DNA from: Gammaproteobacteria bacterium
GTDB taxonomy: Bacteria; Pseudomonadota; Gammaproteobacteria; Eutrophobiales; Eutrophobiaceae
Reading direction: 5' to 3'
DNA: 64,000 nucleotides
NCBI GenBank assembly: GCA_965116495.1
Contig: OZ220696.1
Location: 1,888,001 to 1,952,000, forward strand
Position 1 is the stretch's first letter; each line of letters opens with the position of its first letter. The position numbers and the translations under genes are program-made. Shown here one piece after another: positions 5,154 through 64,000 of this stretch. The notes under the pieces were generated by a model that was not told the origin of the DNA, did not search any database, and worked only from the letters and a program-made list of their open reading frames with translations.

Positions 5154-6188
5154 ATGAAGCATTCCGAGTATGAGGCCGCCGGGGTCAGTATCGACCGGGG
5201 CAACGAGCTGGTAGCCAATATCAAATCCCTGGTGCGGACGGCGCATCGCCCTGAGGTGTTGGCCGAACTGGGCGGTTTCGGCGCATTATTTGACCTTTCC
5301 GCAACGAAATATCGCCAACCGGTGCTGGTTTCGGGCACCGACGGCGCAGGGACAAAAATCAAGCTGGCCATCGAACTCGGCCGGCATGACACCATCGGCA
5401 TCGACCTTGTCGCCATGTGTGTCAACGACATCCTGGCGCAGGGCGCCGAACCCCTGTTCTTTCTGGATTATTTTGCCTGTTCCAGGCTGGACGTAGCCAC
5501 GGCTACAGACGTCGTGAAGGGGATTGTCCGGGGCTGTTCACTCGCAGGGTGCGCCCTGGTTGGGGGTGAAACCGCGGAAATGCCGGGGATGTACCAGCCC
5601 GGGGACTACGACCTGGCCGGTTTTTGCGTGGGAGTAATGGAAAAGGCTCAGGTAATAACCGGGGGACAGGTCAGGGAGCAGGATATCCTGATTGCCCTCC
5701 CCTCCAGCGGACCCCATGCAAACGGTTATTCCCTGATCCGCAAGATCCTGGCCGACTCCGGGACATCCTTGACCGATGACCTGGGGCACACTCCTTTTTC
5801 CGAGTTATTGCTGAAACCGACACGAATTTACAAGGAGGCCATTTTCGCACTGTTGCCGGAGGTGGACCTGAAAGCAGTTGCGCACATAACAGGAGGAGGA
5901 TTGACGGAAAATATCCCCCGGGTCATTCCCGAAAATGTATGTGCTGAGATCCGCCGGGACAGTTGGCGCTGGCCGCCGATATTCCATTGGTTACAGGATA
6001 CCGGCAAGGTCAATACGACGGAAATGTACCGGACGTTTAATTGCGGTATCGGAATGGTGCTTGTAGTCAGCCCCGGTGAAGCGGAAAAGACCCTCGGATT
6101 ATTACGGACAGTCGGCGAACCGGCGTGGCGTCTCGGCACAATCCGGGAACATGACGGCAAAGCCGGGCGGGTCAGATACGTGGATTAG
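5154..6188 (+). CDS. purM: Phosphoribosylaminoimidazole synthetase
   Basis: [49 protein letters not shown]. Confidence 0.97.
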
Positions 6189-55450: not shown

Positions 55451-57298
55451 ATGCCTATGTCGGACATTGAGACACTTGAAGAGCACGAACTCGAACACGA
55501 AGAAGATGATGAGTCGCAATTAAAATTATTAATTGCCAAGGGTAAGGAACATGGCTTCATCACCTACCATGAGGTCACGGAACATTTGCCTGATGAGATC
55601 GTAGACCCGGAACAGATCGAAGATATCATCAACATGATCAACGATATGGGAATCGAAGTCCATGAATTCCCCCCGGGCCTCGATCAATTGCTCCCAAACA
55701 ATTCGGAAACGCCCGTTGACGCGAATGCCTCCCTGGTCAGCGTTGAAAACGAATTCGGGAGAACAACCGACCCGGTTCGTATGTACATGCGGGAAATGGG
55801 TACGGTTGACCTGTTGACCCGCCAAGGCGAAATAAAAATCGCCAAGCGCATTGAAGGCGGCATGAACCAGGTTCTGTTCGCGCTTTCCCAGTATCCCGGG
55901 ACCATCAATATGCTCCTGGATGCGTACTTTTGCGTCCAGAACGGGGAATTGAAACTGAGTGACATTGTCCTTGGATTTAATATCCAGGAAGAGTACCCCG
56001 ATAAAGGTCTGCCTCCTTCGGCCAAGAAACAAACGTCCCGTCAAAACTCTGATGATGACTCCAGTGACACCGACTCGGACGATTCGGTGGACTTTGAGGA
56101 AGTCCGCAAGTCGATTATCGGACTTGATGGACTTTACAAGAAACTGGTCAAATACATCAAACAGCATGGCAAGGCTCACGAGAAAACTACGGCTATTCAA
56201 GATGACATCACGGAAACGTTTCTCCGATTACGCCTGGCGCCGAAATTTATCGCTGAATTGACCATCAACGTGCGCCGCACGATTGAACTGATCCGGAGAT
56301 CGGAGCGCGAGATAATGCGCTTGTGCGTAAAAACGTCGCGTATGCCCCGCAAGAACTTTATCGCCTCTTTTCCCGGTAATGAAAGAAACACGGACTGGAT
56401 CGGGCAACAGGTCGAAAATGACACCCCCTACGCACAGGACCTGGCGCAGGTTATGGACCAGGTGATTAAAATTCAGGAGCGGTTAGCCGAGGCGCTCAGG
56501 GATAATTTACTTTCTATCGCGGAGATAAAGGAAGTCAACCGGAAGATCTCCATCGGCGAGGCGAAAACACGCAAGGCAAAAAAAGAGATGGTCGAGGCCA
56601 ACCTGCGCCTGGTTATCTCCATTGCGAAGAAGTACACCAATCGCGGCCTGCTGTTTCTCGATCTCATACAGGAGGGCAATATCGGCCTTATGAAGGCGGT
56701 GGATAAATTTGAATACCGGCGCGGCTATAAATTCTCCACCTATGCGACCTGGTGGATCCGCCAGGCTATCACGCGCTCGATCGCGGACCAGGCCAGGACA
56801 ATTCGAATCCCCGTGCACATGATCGAGACCATCAACAAACTGAACCGAATCTCGCGACAGATACTGCAGGAGCAGGGCCGGGAACCCACGCCGGAAGAAC
56901 TGGCGGAAAAAATGGACATGCCGGAAGAAAAGATTCGCAAGGTGCTCAAGATCGCCAAGGAACCCATTTCCATGGAAACCCCCATCGGCGATGACGATGA
57001 TTCCCACCTGGGCGACTTTATTGAGGACCTGAATACCCAGGCGCCGGCCGAATACGCCAGTTTTGAGGGATTGCGGCAGACGATGAGGGAGTCGCTCAAC
57101 GGGTTGACGTCCAGGGAAGCAAAAGTATTACGCATGCGCTTCGGCATTGAGATGAATACGGACCATACGCTGGAAGAAGTAGGCAAACAGTTTGACGTAA
57201 CCCGCGAGCGCATCCGGCAAATAGAAGCCAAGGCATTGCGCAAGCTGCGCCACCCGAGCCGTTCCGAGCAGTTGCGGACGTTCATCGAAGGCAGTTAA
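55451..57298 (+). CDS. rpoD: RNA polymerase sigma factor RpoD
   Basis: [42 protein letters not shown]. Confidence 0.98.
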
Positions 57299-57300
57299 TT

Positions 57301-57364
57301 GTCATACTGACGTAAGATCGTCATATCGGCGTTGTTCGTCATACCGGTGCAAGCCGGTATCCAG
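57301..57364. repeat. REP-like GTCAT units (two degenerate, one intact hairpin)
   Basis: GTCATA at 57301, 57320, 57338; last is GTCATACCGGTGCAAGCCGGTATCCAG. Confidence 0.65.
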
Positions 57365-57399
57365 AAATCTGAGATACAATTCAGCTGGACTAAATATTT

Positions 57400-57439
57400 G
57401 GGCCTGTAGCGGGGCCGCATGGCGGCAAGGTTAGAGCAG
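57400..57439 (+). pseudogene. Degenerate duplicate of the tRNA-Ile 5' half with a hairpin insert
   Basis: GGGCCTGTAGC-[GGGGCCGCATGGCGGCAA]-GGTTAGAGCAG versus GGGCCTGTAGC-TCAGTT-GGTTAGAGCAG. Confidence 0.7.
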
Positions 57440-57498
57440 GGCAACCCGCCAGGGTTACGTGTATGATCTGCCGCAATATATTTAATTTGTAATAGTTT

Positions 57499-57821
57499 GG
57501 GCCTGTAGCTCAGTTGGTTAGAGCAGTGGACTCATCAAAAATGGTGCGTTCATATCGAAAGATATGAAATGAACGGGATGAATTCAGGGAAACCTTAACC
57601 CGCCTGCCCACCAGGACAGGAGGAATGGCAACCCTGAGCCAAGCCGGGGGTACACCCCCGGAAGGTGCAGAGACTACCTGGGAACTGAAGTGTTCTTAAT
57701 ATCAGGCTAGAGCGTCCCGTACCCTAACATTTGGTTGAGGGTAGTGAGATAGTCCGCTCCTTTTAGAAATAAAAGGATAAAGTGAATCCATTGGTCGTAG
57801 GTTCGAGTCCTACCGGGCCCA
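57499..57821 (+). tRNA. tRNA-Ile2 (anticodon CAT, lysidine type), exons 57499-57535 and 57785-57821
   Basis: Joined exons fold as a cloverleaf: acceptor GGGCCTG/CGGGCCC, anticodon arm GTGGA-CTCATAA-TCCAT, T-arm GTAGG-TTCGAGT-CCTAC; C4-G69/C5-G68 and post-rpoD position favour Ile2 over Met. Confidence 0.92.
57536..57784 (+). ncRNA. Group I self-splicing intron (IC3-like), 249 nt, no ORF
   Basis: P1 with U-G splice pair, P2 and P9 GAAA hairpins, P3 ACGGGATG/CGTCCCGT, P and Q elements, P7 GACTA/TAGTC, terminal G at 57784. Confidence 0.92.
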
Positions 57822-57923
57822 CCGGATAACGTTGTTATGCCTTCGCCCTACAAGTCCTGGACCAGGCGAAAGCCCAGGTAAGCGTCCCTCATTCCTGCGA
57901 CGGGTTGTTATCCGGAACCGTTC

Positions 57924-60263
57924 TCACACAACTGACACCGGTTCCGGCCTGGCCATGCGGTAGCCGACCGCGCGCACGTTCTGGATGTAGACCGGCAGGG
58001 CCGGGTCATCACCGAGCTTTCGGCGCAGTTGCTTGACAAAGGTACGGACCCGGTCCTGGTCGCCCGATTCAGGACCGTTCCATAGTTGGCGGATCAGCGA
58101 GTCGTAACTGACTACGCGTCCCGCGTTCACCGAGAGGATGTGCAGCAGCTCGTATTCGGTAGCGGTCAGATCTACCGGGCGGGCGGCCATGGTCACCCGC
58201 CGCTGCTCGTACTGGATGGCGAGGTCGCCGAGTACGAAGGGTTCCAGTTCGGTGCGCCTGCGCAGGGCAGCACGGACCCTCGCCGTCAGTTCCGTCGCCG
58301 AGAAGGGCTTGACGATATAGTCGACAGCGCCCTGTTCCAGCGCCTTGGCGATTGTCTCGTCCCGGCCATAGGCAGAGATGAAGATGACTGGAGTGTCGGC
58401 GATCTCCGAGGTACTTTGCATGATCTCGATGCCGTCGGCGCCGGGGAGGATCAGGTCAAGCAAGACCAGGTGGGGCTTCTGCGCCTGAATGATCCGGGGC
58501 AACTCGTTGTAGTCACCGGTCACAATCGGGGAGTAGCCGGCCCGATCCAGTGCGTCGCGAACGAAGCGGAGTATCTGCGGGTCGTCATCCAGCACCAGGA
58601 TGGGCGGGCGCTCGCTTCCCTGCTGGGAGGGGCGGTATTGATCACGAACGCCGCCGGCCTCTTCGGCTACCGGAATCGTGAAAGTGATTTGTGTCCCCCG
58701 GCCCGGCCCGTCGCTGTGCGCCTGGATGCGGCCTCCGTGGGCCTCCACCAGCCCCTTGCAGATGGCCAGCCCCAGACCGCTCCCGCGCCTGTCATCGTCG
58801 CTGAGGATCGTGTACTTGCGGAACAGGCGCGGGAGTTGCTCCGACGGTATCCCTTCACCCTCATCTGTGACCGTGACTGCCACGTGCAGGCCCTCGCGTA
58901 ACCCGGCGACCCGGATAGGAGAGGTACCGAGAGAGAACCTGGAGGCATTGGAAAAGAGGTTGCTCAGCACCTGTACGATGCGCCCCCTGTCGGCGAGCAC
59001 ACGGGGCAGGTCCTGCGGAAGGTCGATCAGGATCGTGTGCTTGCTGCCGCCGCTCAGGAAAGCATTCCTTGCCTGGTCCACCAGTGCGGCCAACTCGACA
59101 GGCGCTGGTGAGACGGACAGTGTGCCCGCGTCGATGCGGCCCGCGTCCAGGAGGTCGCTGATCAGGCCGCGCATGTGATCGGCCTGCTCATCGATGATGC
59201 GAAAGAACTGGTTCACCTCGCCCGGGTCCAGCGCAGAAGAGGCATCCAGCAAGGTGGTGGTCGAGCCCTTGATGGCAGCGAGCGGCGTGCGTAACTCGTG
59301 GCTGACCATGCCCAGGAACTCCGCCCGCAACCTGTCCAGTTCCTCCAGTTGCGCCAGGTCCTGCATGGTGACCACCACCGAGTCGACTTCGCCCTGTGCG
59401 GAACGGATGGGCGTGACGTTGAGCAAGGTGGTGACGCTCCTGCCGTCAGGAACCGATAGCACGACTTCCTCGGCGCGCATGGTCTCGGCTGTCGTTAATG
59501 TTTGTACGCCCGGATACTCGCTCAACGATACCTCGCGCCCATCGGTGAGCCGGCACGTGATCACCTCAATCAGTTCCTCCATGGACTTGCCCGGCATGCG
59601 CAGACCTTCGCCAATCCGGTTGGCCTCCCGGTTGAACGATACCGGCATGCCGGTCCTGGCGTCGAACACTACCACGCCCACCGGCGAGGTCTCCACCAGG
59701 GCCTCGAGGTCGGCCCGCGCCCGCTGCTCGTCGCGGTGCGTGCGGGCATTGGCGATGGCCGTCGCCGCCTGTGACGCGAACAACACCAGCACCTCTTCGT
59801 CCTGGTCCGTGAACGCCTGCCCGCTTTCCTTACCGGCGAGAAAGAAGTTGCCGACATGCATGTCGCGACGACAGATCTGCGTGCCCAGGAAGGTCTCGGA
59901 CAGAATCAGGTCCTCCGAGTAGCCGAGCGAACGGATATAAGTGGACAGGTCTGCCAGCCTCACGACTCCCGACACATCGCGCAAGTGTTCAATGAGCCGC
60001 GGGGTATCGGGGTTTTGCTCGAATTTTTGGTGCTCTTCGCCGGTGAAGCCGGAACTCACGAAGTCCTGGATTTCCCCGCTTTCTCCATAGGTGGTGATGA
60101 TGCCGTAGCCGGCACCGGTCAGGGCGCGGGCGCTGTCCACCACCTCCTGCAGGACGGTGTCAACGTCAAGGCTCGCGCTGATACGCAGGATCGCCGCACT
60201 CAACTGCGAGAGCCGCTCCTGCAGCGCCTCGAGATCCCGCGTATTTTCTTTGCGATCAACCAT
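57924..60263 (-). CDS. Soluble hybrid sensor kinase/response regulator (GAF-PAS-HisKA-HATPase-REC-winged HTH)
   Basis: SHELRTPL, NLFSNA, DEGEG, GSGLGL, VLDDD, LLDL, KPF, LTATEYELL, LRRKLG, VRAVGY; no TM segments evident. Confidence 0.9.
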   Translation of the reverse strand: MVDRKENTRDLEALQERLSQLSAAILRISASLDVDTVLQEVVDSARALTGAGYGIITTYGESGEIQDFVSSGFTGEEHQKFEQNPDTPRLIEHLRDVSGVVRLADLSTYIRSLGYSEDLILSETFLGTQICRRDMHVGNFFLAGKESGQAFTDQDEEVLVLFASQAATAIANARTHRDEQRARADLEALVETSPVGVVVFDARTGMPVSFNREANRIGEGLRMPGKSMEELIEVITCRLTDGREVSLSEYPGVQTLTTAETMRAEEVVLSVPDGRSVTTLLNVTPIRSAQGEVDSVVVTMQDLAQLEELDRLRAEFLGMVSHELRTPLAAIKGSTTTLLDASSALDPGEVNQFFRIIDEQADHMRGLISDLLDAGRIDAGTLSVSPAPVELAALVDQARNAFLSGGSKHTILIDLPQDLPRVLADRGRIVQVLSNLFSNASRFSLGTSPIRVAGLREGLHVAVTVTDEGEGIPSEQLPRLFRKYTILSDDDRRGSGLGLAICKGLVEAHGGRIQAHSDGPGRGTQITFTIPVAEEAGGVRDQYRPSQQGSERPPILVLDDDPQILRFVRDALDRAGYSPIVTGDYNELPRIIQAQKPHLVLLDLILPGADGIEIMQSTSEIADTPVIFISAYGRDETIAKALEQGAVDYIVKPFSATELTARVRAALRRRTELEPFVLGDLAIQYEQRRVTMAARPVDLTATEYELLHILSVNAGRVVSYDSLIRQLWNGPESGDQDRVRTFVKQLRRKLGDDPALPVYIQNVRAVGYRMARPEPVSVV

Positions 60264-60469
60264 TTACCCGCCCCCGCCCCTTATTGTGAGGATTTATTCC
60301 ACGCAATCCCCGAAATACTCACAATTAAACGCATTAAGGGCACGATAATCACACGATTGCTATGTTAGAGTCAATCGCACGCTATTACAGATCCGTATAC
60401 GATAAGCCACAACCTGGGGAGGTCACACTTGAAACCAACACTACAGGCGCAGTCGCACCCATTGCCTGA

Positions 60470-61609
60470 ATGACTTCAGAATCAGGCACATCCGCCGGCT
60501 TATCGGAGCCCCCCGTTCTGGTCACCGGCTCTGCCGGGCACGTAGGCGCCAACCTCGTGCGCAGGCTGCTCGACGACGGCATCCGGGTACGGGTGTTGCT
60601 GAGACACGAGGACAACAACGAGGCATTGGAAGGACTCGAAGTCGAACGCACGTTTGCTGACATCCGGGATCTGGATGCCACCCGGCGCGCACTGGAAGGC
60701 TGCCAGGGCGTTTATCACGTAGCAGCCAAGATCTCAACCATCGAAGGCAACCACGCCCATCGCCGCGAAGTATTCGAGTGCAATGTCCTCGGTACCCGCA
60801 ACGTGCTGCAGGCTGCGCGGGAGGCGGAGGCCGGCCGGGTGGTGGTGACGGGATCATTCAGCGCGGTCGGTTATGACCTGGATGACCCGTCGGCGCCCAG
60901 TGACGAGACCATGCAGTTCTACCCCATGGAACGCACGATGCCCTACGAGCGCAGCAAGACACTGGTCGAGCATGAATGCTGGCGCGCCGCGGCAATGGGG
61001 CAGGATGTCATTGTCGCCACCTGTTGTGCCGTAATCGGGAGCGCCGATTTTTTCCCCTCGCGCCTGGGCAGGACCTTGTGCGACTACACCAACGGCAAGC
61101 TCCGTGCTTACGTGGATGGCGGTTTCGAGTTCGTCGCGGCGCGGGACATCGTCGAAGGACACCTGTTGTGCATGCGCCATGGACGCCCGGGCGAAAAGTA
61201 CATCTTCAGCAGCGAGTACAAAACCATTTCCGAGATCCTGGACCTGTACGAGGAGGTCTCGGGCATCCCGCGACCGCGCAGGCGGATACCGATCCCGATG
61301 ATGCTCGTCTTCTCGGAGGTGGCGAGCTTTTACCTGAGCCGGTTTCACCCGGGTTTCAACCAGCGTTTCACCCCTGGCGCCATCCGCCTGTTGAAAAAGT
61401 GCCGCCACGCCAACATCGACAAGGCGAAACGGGATCTGGGCTACCAGCCCACCAGTATCCGCGCCGCGGTGCACGAGGCCTATGCGTTCCACTACCAGCG
61501 CAACGCGATCAGGAACCCGCGCGCGAAACGCCCGTACGTTGACGCCGTGAGTCAGCCGGAAACTCTCAATCCGGGCCAGGGTATCCAGGTATCTACCGAA
61601 GGGGCTTGA
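60470..61609 (+). CDS. NAD(P)-dependent 3-beta-hydroxysteroid dehydrogenase/epimerase-like SDR (SdmB-like candidate)
   Basis: TGSAGHVG, YHVAA, NVLGT, YERSK. Confidence 0.8.
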   Translation: MTSESGTSAGLSEPPVLVTGSAGHVGANLVRRLLDDGIRVRVLLRHEDNNEALEGLEVERTFADIRDLDATRRALEGCQGVYHVAAKISTIEGNHAHRREVFECNVLGTRNVLQAAREAEAGRVVVTGSFSAVGYDLDDPSAPSDETMQFYPMERTMPYERSKTLVEHECWRAAAMGQDVIVATCCAVIGSADFFPSRLGRTLCDYTNGKLRAYVDGGFEFVAARDIVEGHLLCMRHGRPGEKYIFSSEYKTISEILDLYEEVSGIPRPRRRIPIPMMLVFSEVASFYLSRFHPGFNQRFTPGAIRLLKKCRHANIDKAKRDLGYQPTSIRAAVHEAYAFHYQRNAIRNPRAKRPYVDAVSQPETLNPGQGIQVSTEGA

Positions 61610-61610
61610 T

Positions 61611-62696
61611 ATGAACCCGGCATCATGTGCGCCACCCGGCTTCGATGAAGCCCGCACCCTGCGCCAGCAGGCGCGGGCCGCGGGCATGGACCCGGATTAC
61701 TGGTACGCGGTCGAGGAAGTGCGCCGGGTTAAACCGGAGACCGTGGTCGAGATTGTTTTCTGGAAGCGTTCCATAGCCCTGTACCGGGCGAAAGACGGCT
61801 CGTTTCACGCTATGGATAACCGCTGTGCGCACCGGCAACTCAAACTTTCCCTGGGCGATGTGCAGGGTTGCCGGCTGGTGTGCGCCTACCATGGCTGGGA
61901 GTATGATGAAAACGGGGTCCCCTACAGCCGGTCCGGGCAGGGCCTCAGGAACCTCGCGCTGAGGACCTATCCCATACAGGTCCGCTACGGCCTGGTCTGG
62001 CTGTTTCCCGGGGATCCGGAGCGGGCGCGGCAGCGCGAAATCCCGGATATTCCTGAACTCGAAGGCCCATCCCGGTGGGCCTGTGTACCGCTGAGCTTCA
62101 CCTGGTCAGCGCACCACTCGATGGTGATCGACAACGTCAGCGACTTCACCCACGCCCACCTGCACCGCCGCTACCGCCCCTTTGACGATGCCACCCTCAC
62201 CCGCTGCGAGACCGACGGCGACAACGTGCATCTCGCCTACGACACGCAAGTCGGGCGCGGGCCCGTCTCCAGGCTGTTCGTCGACCACAACCGTATCGAC
62301 ACCAACCACATGGAGCTTTGCTACCAGTACCCCTACCAGTGGTCGAATACCGATGACGAGATAAAACACTGGCTGTTTGTGCTACCCATCGATGAACGCA
62401 CCACCCGGGCGTTTTTCCTGTTCTACTTCCGGTCGCTGAAAATCCCCGTTCTGCCGGTGAGGATCCCCCGGTTCGCCATGACCACGGTTATGAAGATTTC
62501 GAACCGCATGCTTATCGGCCCGTTACTCAGCCAGGACGGCGTTGCGGTCGAGGCGGAGCAGCAGGGGTACGAGAGGCACTGGGATGCCCCTCCCTTCGAG
62601 TTCAACCCGGTCGTCAAGGCTTTTCAGGATGTGACCGTGCGCAAGTGGCGGGAACACCTGGCGCGCACAAACGGGAGCGGTGATGCCGGGGCCTGA
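61611..62696 (+). CDS. Rieske oxygenase (SdmA-like sterol C-4 methyl oxidase candidate)
   Basis: CAHR..CAYHGW; DNVSDFTHAHLH; QDG; sterol assignment rests on context. Confidence 0.8.
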   Translation: MNPASCAPPGFDEARTLRQQARAAGMDPDYWYAVEEVRRVKPETVVEIVFWKRSIALYRAKDGSFHAMDNRCAHRQLKLSLGDVQGCRLVCAYHGWEYDENGVPYSRSGQGLRNLALRTYPIQVRYGLVWLFPGDPERARQREIPDIPELEGPSRWACVPLSFTWSAHHSMVIDNVSDFTHAHLHRRYRPFDDATLTRCETDGDNVHLAYDTQVGRGPVSRLFVDHNRIDTNHMELCYQYPYQWSNTDDEIKHWLFVLPIDERTTRAFFLFYFRSLKIPVLPVRIPRFAMTTVMKISNRMLIGPLLSQDGVAVEAEQQGYERHWDAPPFEFNPVVKAFQDVTVRKWREHLARTNGSGDAGA

Positions 62697-63783
62697 GCCG
62701 CACTTTCTGTTGTCCGCGCTGTCCGGCGCCGCCCTGCTCAAGGCGGCGGCTATGCTGCTGGTGTTTACCGGCGGGTTGTTCCTGGGTTCCATGCTGCTGC
62801 CCGGACGCCGGATTGCCGGGACGGACCTGGAGGGAACACCACACGAATACAGGCTCAACGGCCTCGCCCTGTTCCTGGCAACCGTGATTGCGGCAGGTCT
62901 CGTCCAGGTCTCCGGCTGGTTCTCACTTTCCACGTTGTATACCCACTTTGCCGCCTTGTTCGTGGCGGCCAACGTACTTGCATTTGCGCTTGCCGCCTGG
63001 CTGTATTACCGGGCCGCCCTGACCCGGGACTCAGCGCCGGGAATCCGGCCGAGCTTCTTCTATGGCGTGGAGTTCAATCCAACCGTGCTCGGGGTGGATT
63101 TGAAGCTTTTCAGCTACCGCCCGTCCCTCATCGGCCTGGCGCTGTTCAACGCATCGTTCGCCGTAGTGCAATACGAGACCTACGGCGGGCTGACCCTGGC
63201 AATGGCGCTGTACCAGGTCTTCACCTTCTGCTACGTGCTCAACTACTTCCAGTTCGAATACGGCATGACCCACACCTGGGACATGGTCAGCGAGCGCTTC
63301 GGCTGGATGCTGATCTGGGGGGACTACGTGCTGGTGCCGTTTTTCTATTGTCTCGCCGGCTGGTGGCTGGTCCACGCACAGCAACCGCTGTCTCTAATCG
63401 CCACCGCGGCGATCGTCATGTTGTTCATCATTGGCTTCTGGCTGTTCCGCGGCGCCAACGAGCAAAAACACCGCTTCAAGCGCAATCCCGGCGTGTCGAT
63501 CTGGGGACAACCCGCCCGGTCGCTGGACGGGCGCCTGCTGGTCTCCGGATTCTGGGGGATCGGACGGCATCTCAACTATACCGGTGAGATCTGCATCTAC
63601 CTCGCGTTCGCCCTCACCACGGGGTTCGGATCCTGGGTGCCTTACCTGTTGCCCGCGTGGCTGGCGCTCCTGTTGTGGCATCGCTCAAAACGTGACGATC
63701 GCCGCTGCCGCGCCAAGTACGGCGAACTGTGGGGACGCTACACGCAGCGGGTGCGGTATTCAATGCTGCCGTATGTCTACTAA
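62683..63783 (+). CDS. Sterol reductase, ERG24/ERG4/LBR family (probable delta-14 reductase)
   Basis: YRPSLIG, TWD..ERFGWMLIWGD..VPF.Y, LLVSGFWG..RHLNY.GE, HR..RDD.RC..KYG..W..Y, PYVY. Confidence 0.9.
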   Translation: MPGPEPHFLLSALSGAALLKAAAMLLVFTGGLFLGSMLLPGRRIAGTDLEGTPHEYRLNGLALFLATVIAAGLVQVSGWFSLSTLYTHFAALFVAANVLAFALAAWLYYRAALTRDSAPGIRPSFFYGVEFNPTVLGVDLKLFSYRPSLIGLALFNASFAVVQYETYGGLTLAMALYQVFTFCYVLNYFQFEYGMTHTWDMVSERFGWMLIWGDYVLVPFFYCLAGWWLVHAQQPLSLIATAAIVMLFIIGFWLFRGANEQKHRFKRNPGVSIWGQPARSLDGRLLVSGFWGIGRHLNYTGEICIYLAFALTTGFGSWVPYLLPAWLALLLWHRSKRDDRRCRAKYGELWGRYTQRVRYSMLPYVY

Positions 63784-63789
63784 CCCGCA

Positions 63790-64000
63790 ATGTCACAGCA
63801 ATCCGACAGCGTAGCCAGCCTGCATTCGGTGCAACCCCCGCCGCGGGCGGCAACAGCCGTTCCCTTGATCGGGGGCGGATGGCCGTTAATCGGCCACCTG
63901 CCGGGCTTCCTGAAGGATCCGGTCTCGATGTTGAGCCGCGGCTGGCGCGAACAGGGTGAACTCGTCCGGTTCCGTATCGGTCCCCGTAATTTTGTCCTGT
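63790..64000 (+). CDS. Cytochrome P450 N-terminus (CYP51-like), truncated by the window end
   Basis: Not in the ORF track; MSQQ..GGGWPLIGHLPGFLKDPVSMLSRGWREQGELVRFRIGPRNFVL matches the P450 Pro-rich N-terminal region. Confidence 0.75.
   Translation, partial: MSQQSDSVASLHSVQPPPRAATAVPLIGGGWPLIGHLPGFLKDPVSMLSRGWREQGELVRFRIGPRNFVL

Follow-up and report, generated by a model that had tools for sequence, protein, structure and literature searches.

The only tRNA-Ile2(CAU) gene found in the gammaproteobacterial genome G000 is split by a 249-nt group I intron that carries no ORF. Very probably the intron removes itself from the precursor and this copy was acquired, from a related lineage, together with a tract of about 35 kb. 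The gene lies in the window, i.e. the whole stretch of 64,000 nucleotides that was analysed; positions are those of the window unless another sequence is named. G000 is the genome holding the window (one contig, 99.5% complete), and G001 to G022 are its congeners. The features of the locus are collected in Table 1.

Table 1. Features of the split tRNA-Ile2 locus in window coordinates, with the pairing evidence from an alignment of 47 introns.
Feature	Position	Strand	Remarks
rpoD (sigma-70)	55451..57298	+	Pfam Sigma70 regions; end gene of rpsU-yqeY-dnaG-rpoD, upstream of the tRNA
Upstream unit, about 100 nt	57400..57498	+	Opens like a tRNA 5' end; two short hairpins; extended -10-like TG-TATRAT box at 57460-57467
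tRNA-Ile2 5' exon (positions 1-36)	57499..57535	+	Anticodon CAT at 57533-57535; U36 = U(-1)
Group I intron, 249 nt, no ORF	57536..57784	+	RF00028; empty alleles; omega-G 57784
P1	57533-57537 with 57542-57546	+	U57535.G57544 wobble; 4/5 pairs kept in 47/47 introns, the fifth broken in 22
P2, GAAA loop	57549..57568	+	Two-sided changes in 8/8 pairs
P3	57573-57580 with 57713-57720	+	Outer A-U pair kept in just 8/47
P4	57584-57589 with 57632-57637	+	Alignment of 47 introns
P5	57593-57594 with 57627-57628	+	With variable P5a hairpin
P6	57638-57639 with 57665-57666	+	
P6a	57644-57661	+	
P7	57670 and 57672-57676 with 57750-57755	+	6/6 pairs invariant in 47 introns
P7.1	57677-57680 with 57703-57706	+	Invariant, 4 bp; followed by a conserved 6-nt bulge
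P7.1a	57681-57685 with 57692-57696	+	5 bp, 100% paired; two-sided changes at 2 pairs (26 and 20 of 47 sequences)
P8	57721..57742	+	CCCTAAC..GAGGG motif
P9.0	57756-57757 with 57782-57783	+	Read from the alignment, not counted
P9, GAAA loop	57758-57777	+	
tRNA-Ile2 3' exon (positions 37-73) and CCG	57785..57824	+	AATCC from 57785; discriminator A 57821
Start of the tract, probably laterally shared	57825..64000	.	65-nt flank common to G022, G015 and G014; hybrid histidine kinase; sterol cluster continuing past the window

The intron is inserted between tRNA positions 36 and 37. Rfam model RF00028 matches 57526-57776 with 84.8 bits (cut-off 50, E 1.4e-21), so the covariance-model search proposed in the earlier note gives a match; the intron region folds with z = -4.84, and none of 200 shuffles is equally stable. 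Of the 49 splice registers tried, a single one, the one adopted, has a U directly 5' of the intron, a G as its last base and a normal 76-nt tRNA in which the anticodon is correctly placed; the other 48 lack this combination and were rejected. Both boundaries are fixed by 11 genomes of the genus in which this gene is uninterrupted, exon against exon. Two public runs of unrecorded library type (X19 and X22) supply contigs that match 57507-57820 without a mismatch, and as they may come from the source material they are not independent; their overlap is 29 letters at the 5' junction, just under the 31-letter rule, and 36 at the 3' junction. These contigs span both junctions and ten congeners carry the same insertion, which speaks against misassembly at either boundary.

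Annotation can miss this gene because ARAGORN drops it by default and miscalls it when introns are allowed. The default run reports no tRNA in the window, as the earlier note had thought possible. With introns enabled the gene is detected but called Gln(CTG), a register error that was rejected. As a finding about annotation this is routine, a seemingly essential tRNA being dropped or miscalled by standard tools. The gene ends in CCG rather than CCA, so CCA would need adding after trimming; CCG also ends the gene in G022 and G014, and CCA ends it in G015, G016, G019 and G001.

The fold is that of a group I intron: a P1 helix with a U.G wobble at the 5' splice site, a terminal omega-G, the P3-P7 pseudoknot core with P4-P6 and a putative guanosine-binding G-C pair. 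All coordinates and helices named beforehand (P1, P2, P3, P, Q, P6a, P7, P8, P9 and CCTG..CAGG) were recovered, and the description of a split tRNA holds throughout. The extra CCTG..CAGG stem is present as claimed and is really a two-part P7.1/P7.1a domain at 57677-57706. By analogy with established group I chemistry, G57672-C57754 is predicted to be the guanosine-binding pair, next to the bulged A57671.

A 65-pair model was scored on 47 introns of the same subtype, which were selected out of 63 candidates so as to match in length. Pairing holds in 96.4% of cells, and 24 pairs show two-sided changes. None of 500 shuffles scores as high, a comparison that related sequences can win by relatedness, and slid controls reach 34-43%. 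The structural support rests on P2, P6a, P7.1a, P8 and P9, because P4-P7 are nearly invariant; invariant pairs (P4-P7 and P7.1) are uninformative for structure. The U57535.G57544 pair is kept in 47/47 introns, and P1 has a probability of 0.38-0.56 in the modelled precursor. GNRA loops occur at L2 and L9, and the L9 pattern is found in 79/79 subtype members. The CCCTAAC motif in P8, present in 16/79 members, is with GAGGG a putative IC3-type GNRA receptor. When the alignment was inspected by eye, the P6a loop and P7.1 showed no covariation that would indicate pairing with each other. No ORF lies in the intron, where the longest stop-free stretch is 53 codons, in line with the earlier claim that it encodes no homing endonuclease. 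It is therefore not a mobile (homing) intron in the sense of encoding its own enzyme, and no HNH homologue was found in the genome.

The intron belongs to the site class Ile2.5Ug, being placed after position 36 of tRNA-Ile2 with U(-1) and G(omega). This is one of four classical sites in a survey of 5,292 split tRNA genes from 80,413 genomes (Williams 2020, bioRxiv 10.1101/2020.01.27.920355), and the tRNA, the site, U(-1) and G(omega) are all shared with that class. The survey treats the introns of the site without division into structural lineages, and members of the present P7.1 subtype may well be included in its data. Knowledge of the site goes back to 1992 (cited in PMC4033280); the accessible text of that 2014 review names tRNA introns just for cyanobacteria and a few alpha- and beta-proteobacteria. 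The insertion 3' of the CAU anticodon is indeed the site used in Azoarcus. The rarity implied by the earlier note does not stand: the site is patchy, not rare, with the intron in 10/22 congeners, full-length relatives in 20/299 other genomes of the class (an even sample) and about 1,300 GTDB stretches estimated. The site class is a classical one with many members, and the intron is an ordinary representative of it.

The GTDB estimate comes from a search for P7' plus the 3' exon pattern, which found 121 loci in 6 of 64 parts. Merged mapping placed 105 of these and left 16 unmapped; the second mapping method missed 30 loci and miscalled some. The mapping demands U(-1) and omega-G, which are therefore not counted as evidence. 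The mapped loci comprise 104 tRNA(CAT) genes and one tRNA(TGT). Among the 104 CAT introns, 79 carry the CCTG..CAGG insert, 16 carry other P7.1 forms (mostly Burkholderiales and Bacteroidota) and nine are short introns of 202-223 nt that lack an insert and, where a class is given, come from Betaproteobacteria. The P7.1-bearing form is accordingly the commonest in the samples drawn (95/104), and the gammaproteobacterial host named in the earlier note is consistent with records titled Gammaproteobacteria for 73 of the 79 subtype introns. RpoD fragments, compared over unequal lengths, likewise come nearest to gammaproteobacterial records. A metagenome sample of 121 loci gave 72 CAT introns (59 long, 13 short), 34 unmapped loci, nine intron-less false matches and six others, three of which are 'CCT' calls that resemble miscalled CAT introns. 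The intron had no match in plasmids, and cultured phages gave partial matches only, in 10 records.

Related P7.1-type introns also occur at position 36/37 of other tRNAs. The one in tRNA-Lys(CTT), found among the 20 class genomes, is 237 nt long (genome G050, locus L018); those in tRNA-Thr(TGT) come from two viral contigs and one bacterial record (L038, L043, L101). A tRNA(CAT) intron of Saprospiraceae (L116) is 687 nt long, and on inspection by eye its P1 loop holds an interrupted HNH-like frame; it is the sole bacterial copy seen with such a remnant.

Sequence comparison places the intron in a gammaproteobacterial lineage with P7.1/P7.1a, separate from the short Azoarcus-like introns. With the insert removed, its core identity to the 80 introns of its own subtype is 67-86%, and to the nine of the short class 49-54%. 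In the core tree the subtype and the short class each form one side of a branch (SH-aLRT 98 and 100); for this tree the insert was cut out automatically, at a wrong place in some of the rows from other subtypes, and about nine rows of the present subtype were shortened by it. The distance from P7 to P7' is 72, against 37-49 in the short class. The traits of the short lineage (no P7-P3' insertion, about 205 nt, clustering) are absent here. By size and hosts, the short class of 202-223 nt is taken to be that of the Azoarcus intron. Databases mark classical tRNA introns as IC3. One criterion for subgroup IC3, the lack of a P7.1 extension, does not fit an intron in which P7.1/P7.1a is present and conserved, and it is not filed as IC3 here.

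The Azoarcus pre-tRNA-Ile intron, of 205 nt according to PMC13168695, shares with this one the anticodon-loop insertion and a compact ORF-less group I core. The present intron differs from the Azoarcus-like class in its 249 nt, the added P7.1/P7.1a domain and the P5a hairpin. P7.1 and P7.2 help to define group I classes (PMC3984707). Bacterial tmRNA introns (PMC11915505) likewise sit in a structural-RNA host, have a P7.1 region and mostly lack an endonuclease (36/883 carry the gene); they differ in lying in the T-loop of tmRNA and in placing LAGLIDADG endonucleases in P7.1 or after P9. No account of P7.1 in tRNA-Ile2 introns turned up in the literature search, which covered sources other than the older subscription literature on tRNA introns of proteobacteria.

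Phage relatives of the intron carry a different cargo. A viral search with a pattern of P7 and the P7.1a-bulge motif returned 105 loci, 25 of them then followed by a tRNA-like 3' exon. Several hold introns of 700-780 nt with a frame of 184-229 codons that runs from L1 through P2-P4 into L5, and 8/8 of the phage intron ORFs tested match Pfam HNH_3, with zinc-finger and helix-turn-helix-like parts kept. Among the best 36 viral loci for this HNH family, 14 are tRNA(CAT) introns at 36/37, 704-777 nt long and of the same P7.1 architecture; they amount to 9 distinct sequences, two nearly identical, and a 15th is recognised by its junctions. HNH-bearing CAT introns at 36/37 include L373, L359, L360, L386, L406, L407, L415 and L434, and ORF-less phage copies at the same site are L365, L395, L398 and L433. 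Other members of the family are free-standing, often beside tRNA genes (phiKZ, BRkr and PBC2).

Phage tRNA(CAU) introns thus share the site and the P7.1/P7.1a architecture with the G000 intron, as well as a core identity of 67-81%, in which the values for L462/L463 and L469 are floors owing to a misaligned 5' core. They differ in length, in their HNH-zinc finger-HTH ORF and in being borne by phages (uncultured viral contigs), and they fall outside the bacterial subtype clade (98/89), where the deeper branches are weak. No paper was found in the literature search on HNH introns in phage tRNA(CAU); a 2014 review (PMC3984707) knows phage introns in protein genes alone, in the text accessible. The phage introns are a plausible ultimate source.

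Whether a phage enzyme placed this particular copy is a separate question. In such homing, a phage HNH enzyme acting in trans would cut a tRNA-Ile2 gene that lacks the intron, and the intron would then be copied from a donor during repair, along with a long co-conversion tract. The same-site loci, the HNH_3 matches, the core identities and the free-standing relatives beside tRNA genes all fit that account, but it is unlikely: the shared tract is about 35 kb and one-sided, cleavage is only supposed, the phage introns lie outside the bacterial clade, and an HNH homologue of the phage type was found neither in G000 nor in any of 400 class genomes (a search without positive control). The recipient lineage was, besides, probably intron-bearing already, because the sisters G001 and G019 carry the intron, and cleavage would therefore be blocked.

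A wider history can be put forward tentatively. The P7.1 tRNA-Ile2 introns may represent a second invasion of the Azoarcus site, derived from phage HNH introns, in which the enzyme was lost and the intron, kept in a single-copy tRNA that is essential, spread between species by hitchhiking on tracts that start at this tRNA, here the sterol region of about 35 kb. If this history is true, endonuclease-less tRNA introns would have a DNA-level route of spread for which reverse splicing is unneeded, and a putative ribozyme architecture would be at hand, an IC3-like core with P7.1/P7.1a. The reverse-splicing route itself is described in PMC3984707 as being without direct experimental support. The commonest intron at the site in these samples is the P7.1-bearing form, not the Azoarcus-like model ribozyme, and its phage relatives carry HNH; the extra domain and the homing target are therefore open to direct test.

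The proposed splicing pathway follows the two-step guanosine-dependent mechanism of group I introns (PMC3984707). A free G would bind at P7 (G57672-C57754) and attack after U36 within the P1 wobble; the 5' exon would next attack after omega-G57784. Omega-G, P9.0 and the anticodon stem probably define where the 3' cut falls. A37 would face the guide G, so no canonical P10 is formed, and exon pairing in the anticodon stem plausibly substitutes for it. In the Anabaena intron, such anticodon-stem pairing is reportedly a requirement. TilS would then modify C34 of the spliced tRNA, which would read AUA.

It is distinctly unlikely that the intron splices with protein help only, i.e. with a chaperone or maturase that binds P7.1. 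The strong conservation of P7.1 and its bulge, for which no pairing partner was found by eye, and the marginal P1 of the model would suit a protein partner, and some other group I introns do have known cofactors (PMC3984707). Against this, the core is complete, GNRA loops are present at L2 and L9, and self-splicing in vitro is established for the pre-tRNA intron of Azoarcus (PMC13168695). Self-splicing is thus preferred.

The spliced product would be tRNA-Ile2(CAU). It has G3-C70, C4-G69 and C5-G68, which are marks of tRNA-Ile(CAT) under rules taken from PMC1635315, and lacks the C3-G70 of Met and the A11-T24 of fMet. The genome has three other CAT tRNA genes, all with C3-G70, which read as an elongator Met gene, an fMet gene and a degenerate relative of the latter. 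A search of G000 gave neither a second Ile2 gene nor a second copy of the exons or intron, and 0/46 tRNA genes called by ARAGORN at the default threshold have a TAT anticodon; a low-threshold run (3,837 calls) was noise and was discarded. The supposition that this is the sole AUA-decoding tRNA therefore agrees with the genome as searched. A single intact tilS is present (TIGR02432, 181 bits, 446-aa open frame), and ATA is used in 1,176 of 1,197 long ORFs, mechanically called. With an intact tilS and no further Ile2 gene from the search, splicing is likely required in G000. The degenerate initiator-tRNA-like sequence (G000:C1 2292737-2292808) keeps its 3' half intact and is perhaps an integration remnant.

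The survey of the rpoD-tRNA locus suggested by the earlier note shows how the intron is distributed in the genus: of 22 congeners, ten have an intron of 241-251 nt at the site, 11 are uninterrupted, and in one (83% complete) the gene was not found. Among 14 genomes of other genera of the family there was no intron match, and seven read as uninterrupted. On rpoB and rpoD trees, 2 changes suffice to account for presence and absence of the intron, and shuffled states take 7.4-7.7. The intron is likely ancestral in the genus and precisely lost at least twice (in G014 and in a clade of 10 empty genomes), a reading in which gain versus loss depends on the root of these midpoint-rooted trees; the intron tree has one starred branch of 10.

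The copy in G000 departs from this host pattern. G000 is sister to G001/G019 (100/100 in rpoB), and its rpoD groups with that lineage both in the tree and by informative sites. Its intron, in contrast, differs over 249 sites by 3-4 from G022, G015 and G016 and by 19-21 from the sisters, and an AU test rejects the intron in the sister clade (p = 0.015). Informative sites, which are not independent of each other, match G015/G022 at 16/17 positions in tRNA plus intron, against 71/221 in rpoD and 152/411 in rpoB. The adjoining DNA shows the same affinity: 57888-63787 is 96.5% identical to G022, and from the tRNA locus to G000 position 1979975 (1945451-1979975) blocks are 93-97% identical. Outside this tract, identity to G022 is 77-84% upstream and mostly 78-87% from G000 position 1998693. 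The sisters G001/G019 have no high-identity tract, and GC climbs to about 0.62 at its start.

The simplest reading is that the tRNA locus was acquired with the tract by recombination, the direction of transfer being presumed. G000 would have taken the locus and its intron as the left edge of about 35 kb from the G022/G015 lineage, with the resident allele replaced without an endonuclease of the intron's own; on these comparisons, the copy likely hitchhiked in from a non-sister lineage. It is very unlikely that descent was purely vertical, the likeness to G022, G015 and G016 reflecting slow evolution or change on the G001/G019 branch. Presence and absence do follow the host tree and the intron is short and constrained, but the introns of G007 and G003 also differ from that of G000, at 18 and 22 sites, and the AU test, the informative sites and the jump in identity of the adjoining DNA all oppose it. 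With acquisition by recombination preferred, the locus offers a concrete case of likely co-transfer of an intron with flanking DNA, for which occupied and empty sister alleles are known. Integration of an island at this site, which would leave the tRNA end in duplicate, was considered and rejected, since the genome holds no second 3' exon or intron copy; the only integrase nearby is 40 kb away and broken by an internal stop.

All runs were examined as contigs, six of RNA and two of unrecorded type. Contigs of the six RNA runs contain no exon-exon joint; in those from relatives, the intron is covered or the junctions are crossed unspliced. The circle joint was not seen in the six RNA runs and the two of unrecorded type. 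X19/X22 do contain a 57535-57785 joint, i.e. a 249-nt skip, but this was not accepted as a sign of splicing: its sides are 22-25 letters, the communities are mixed, and other organisms have uninterrupted genes. That the gene is dead or misassembled and AUA read by another route is scarcely credible: the CCG end and the lack of spliced RNA would agree with it, against a perfect core, the same insertion in ten congeners, contigs across both junctions, an intact tilS and no other Ile2 or TAT tRNA at the default ARAGORN threshold.

The tract contains a sterol cluster (window 60470-64000 and L215 6491-12407) with a 3-beta-HSD-like protein, a Rieske oxygenase, ERG4/ERG24, a P450, a squalene epoxidase-cyclase fusion of 1,150 aa and a sterol methyltransferase. 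Of 23 genomes of the genus, 11 have a second such cyclase, which adjoins the tRNA in G000 and G022 and lies elsewhere in G020. Sterol clusters have been described in uncultured bacteria (PMC10070321).

The single 23S gene of G000 holds two group I introns 34 nt apart (L001 5059-5404 and about 5439-6182; G000 617058-618181), the second with an intact LAGLIDADG ORF (L001 5660-6148, Pfam E 3.9e-26). Both are complete, among five congeners, in the sister G001 alone; G003, G014 and G022 are empty, and G004 has part of the first. In contrast to the tRNA intron, they are shared with the sister and not with G022. Their sites resemble L1917/L1951.

The unit upstream of the tRNA gene (57400-57498) is present in intron-bearing and empty genomes alike and is not tied to the intron. 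It is single in G000, G003, G014 and G016, partial in G001 and G019, and tandem in G021 and G022; one RNA-run contig loops back on it. A role as a structured RNA was unsupported (z -1.58; two-sided changes in 3/35 pairs), and no sigma-70 consensus promoter was called in it; it is possibly a promoter-leader duplication. In the gap between rpoD and the tRNA, a sequence of about 30 nt (about 57335-57365) recurs some 40 times in the genome.
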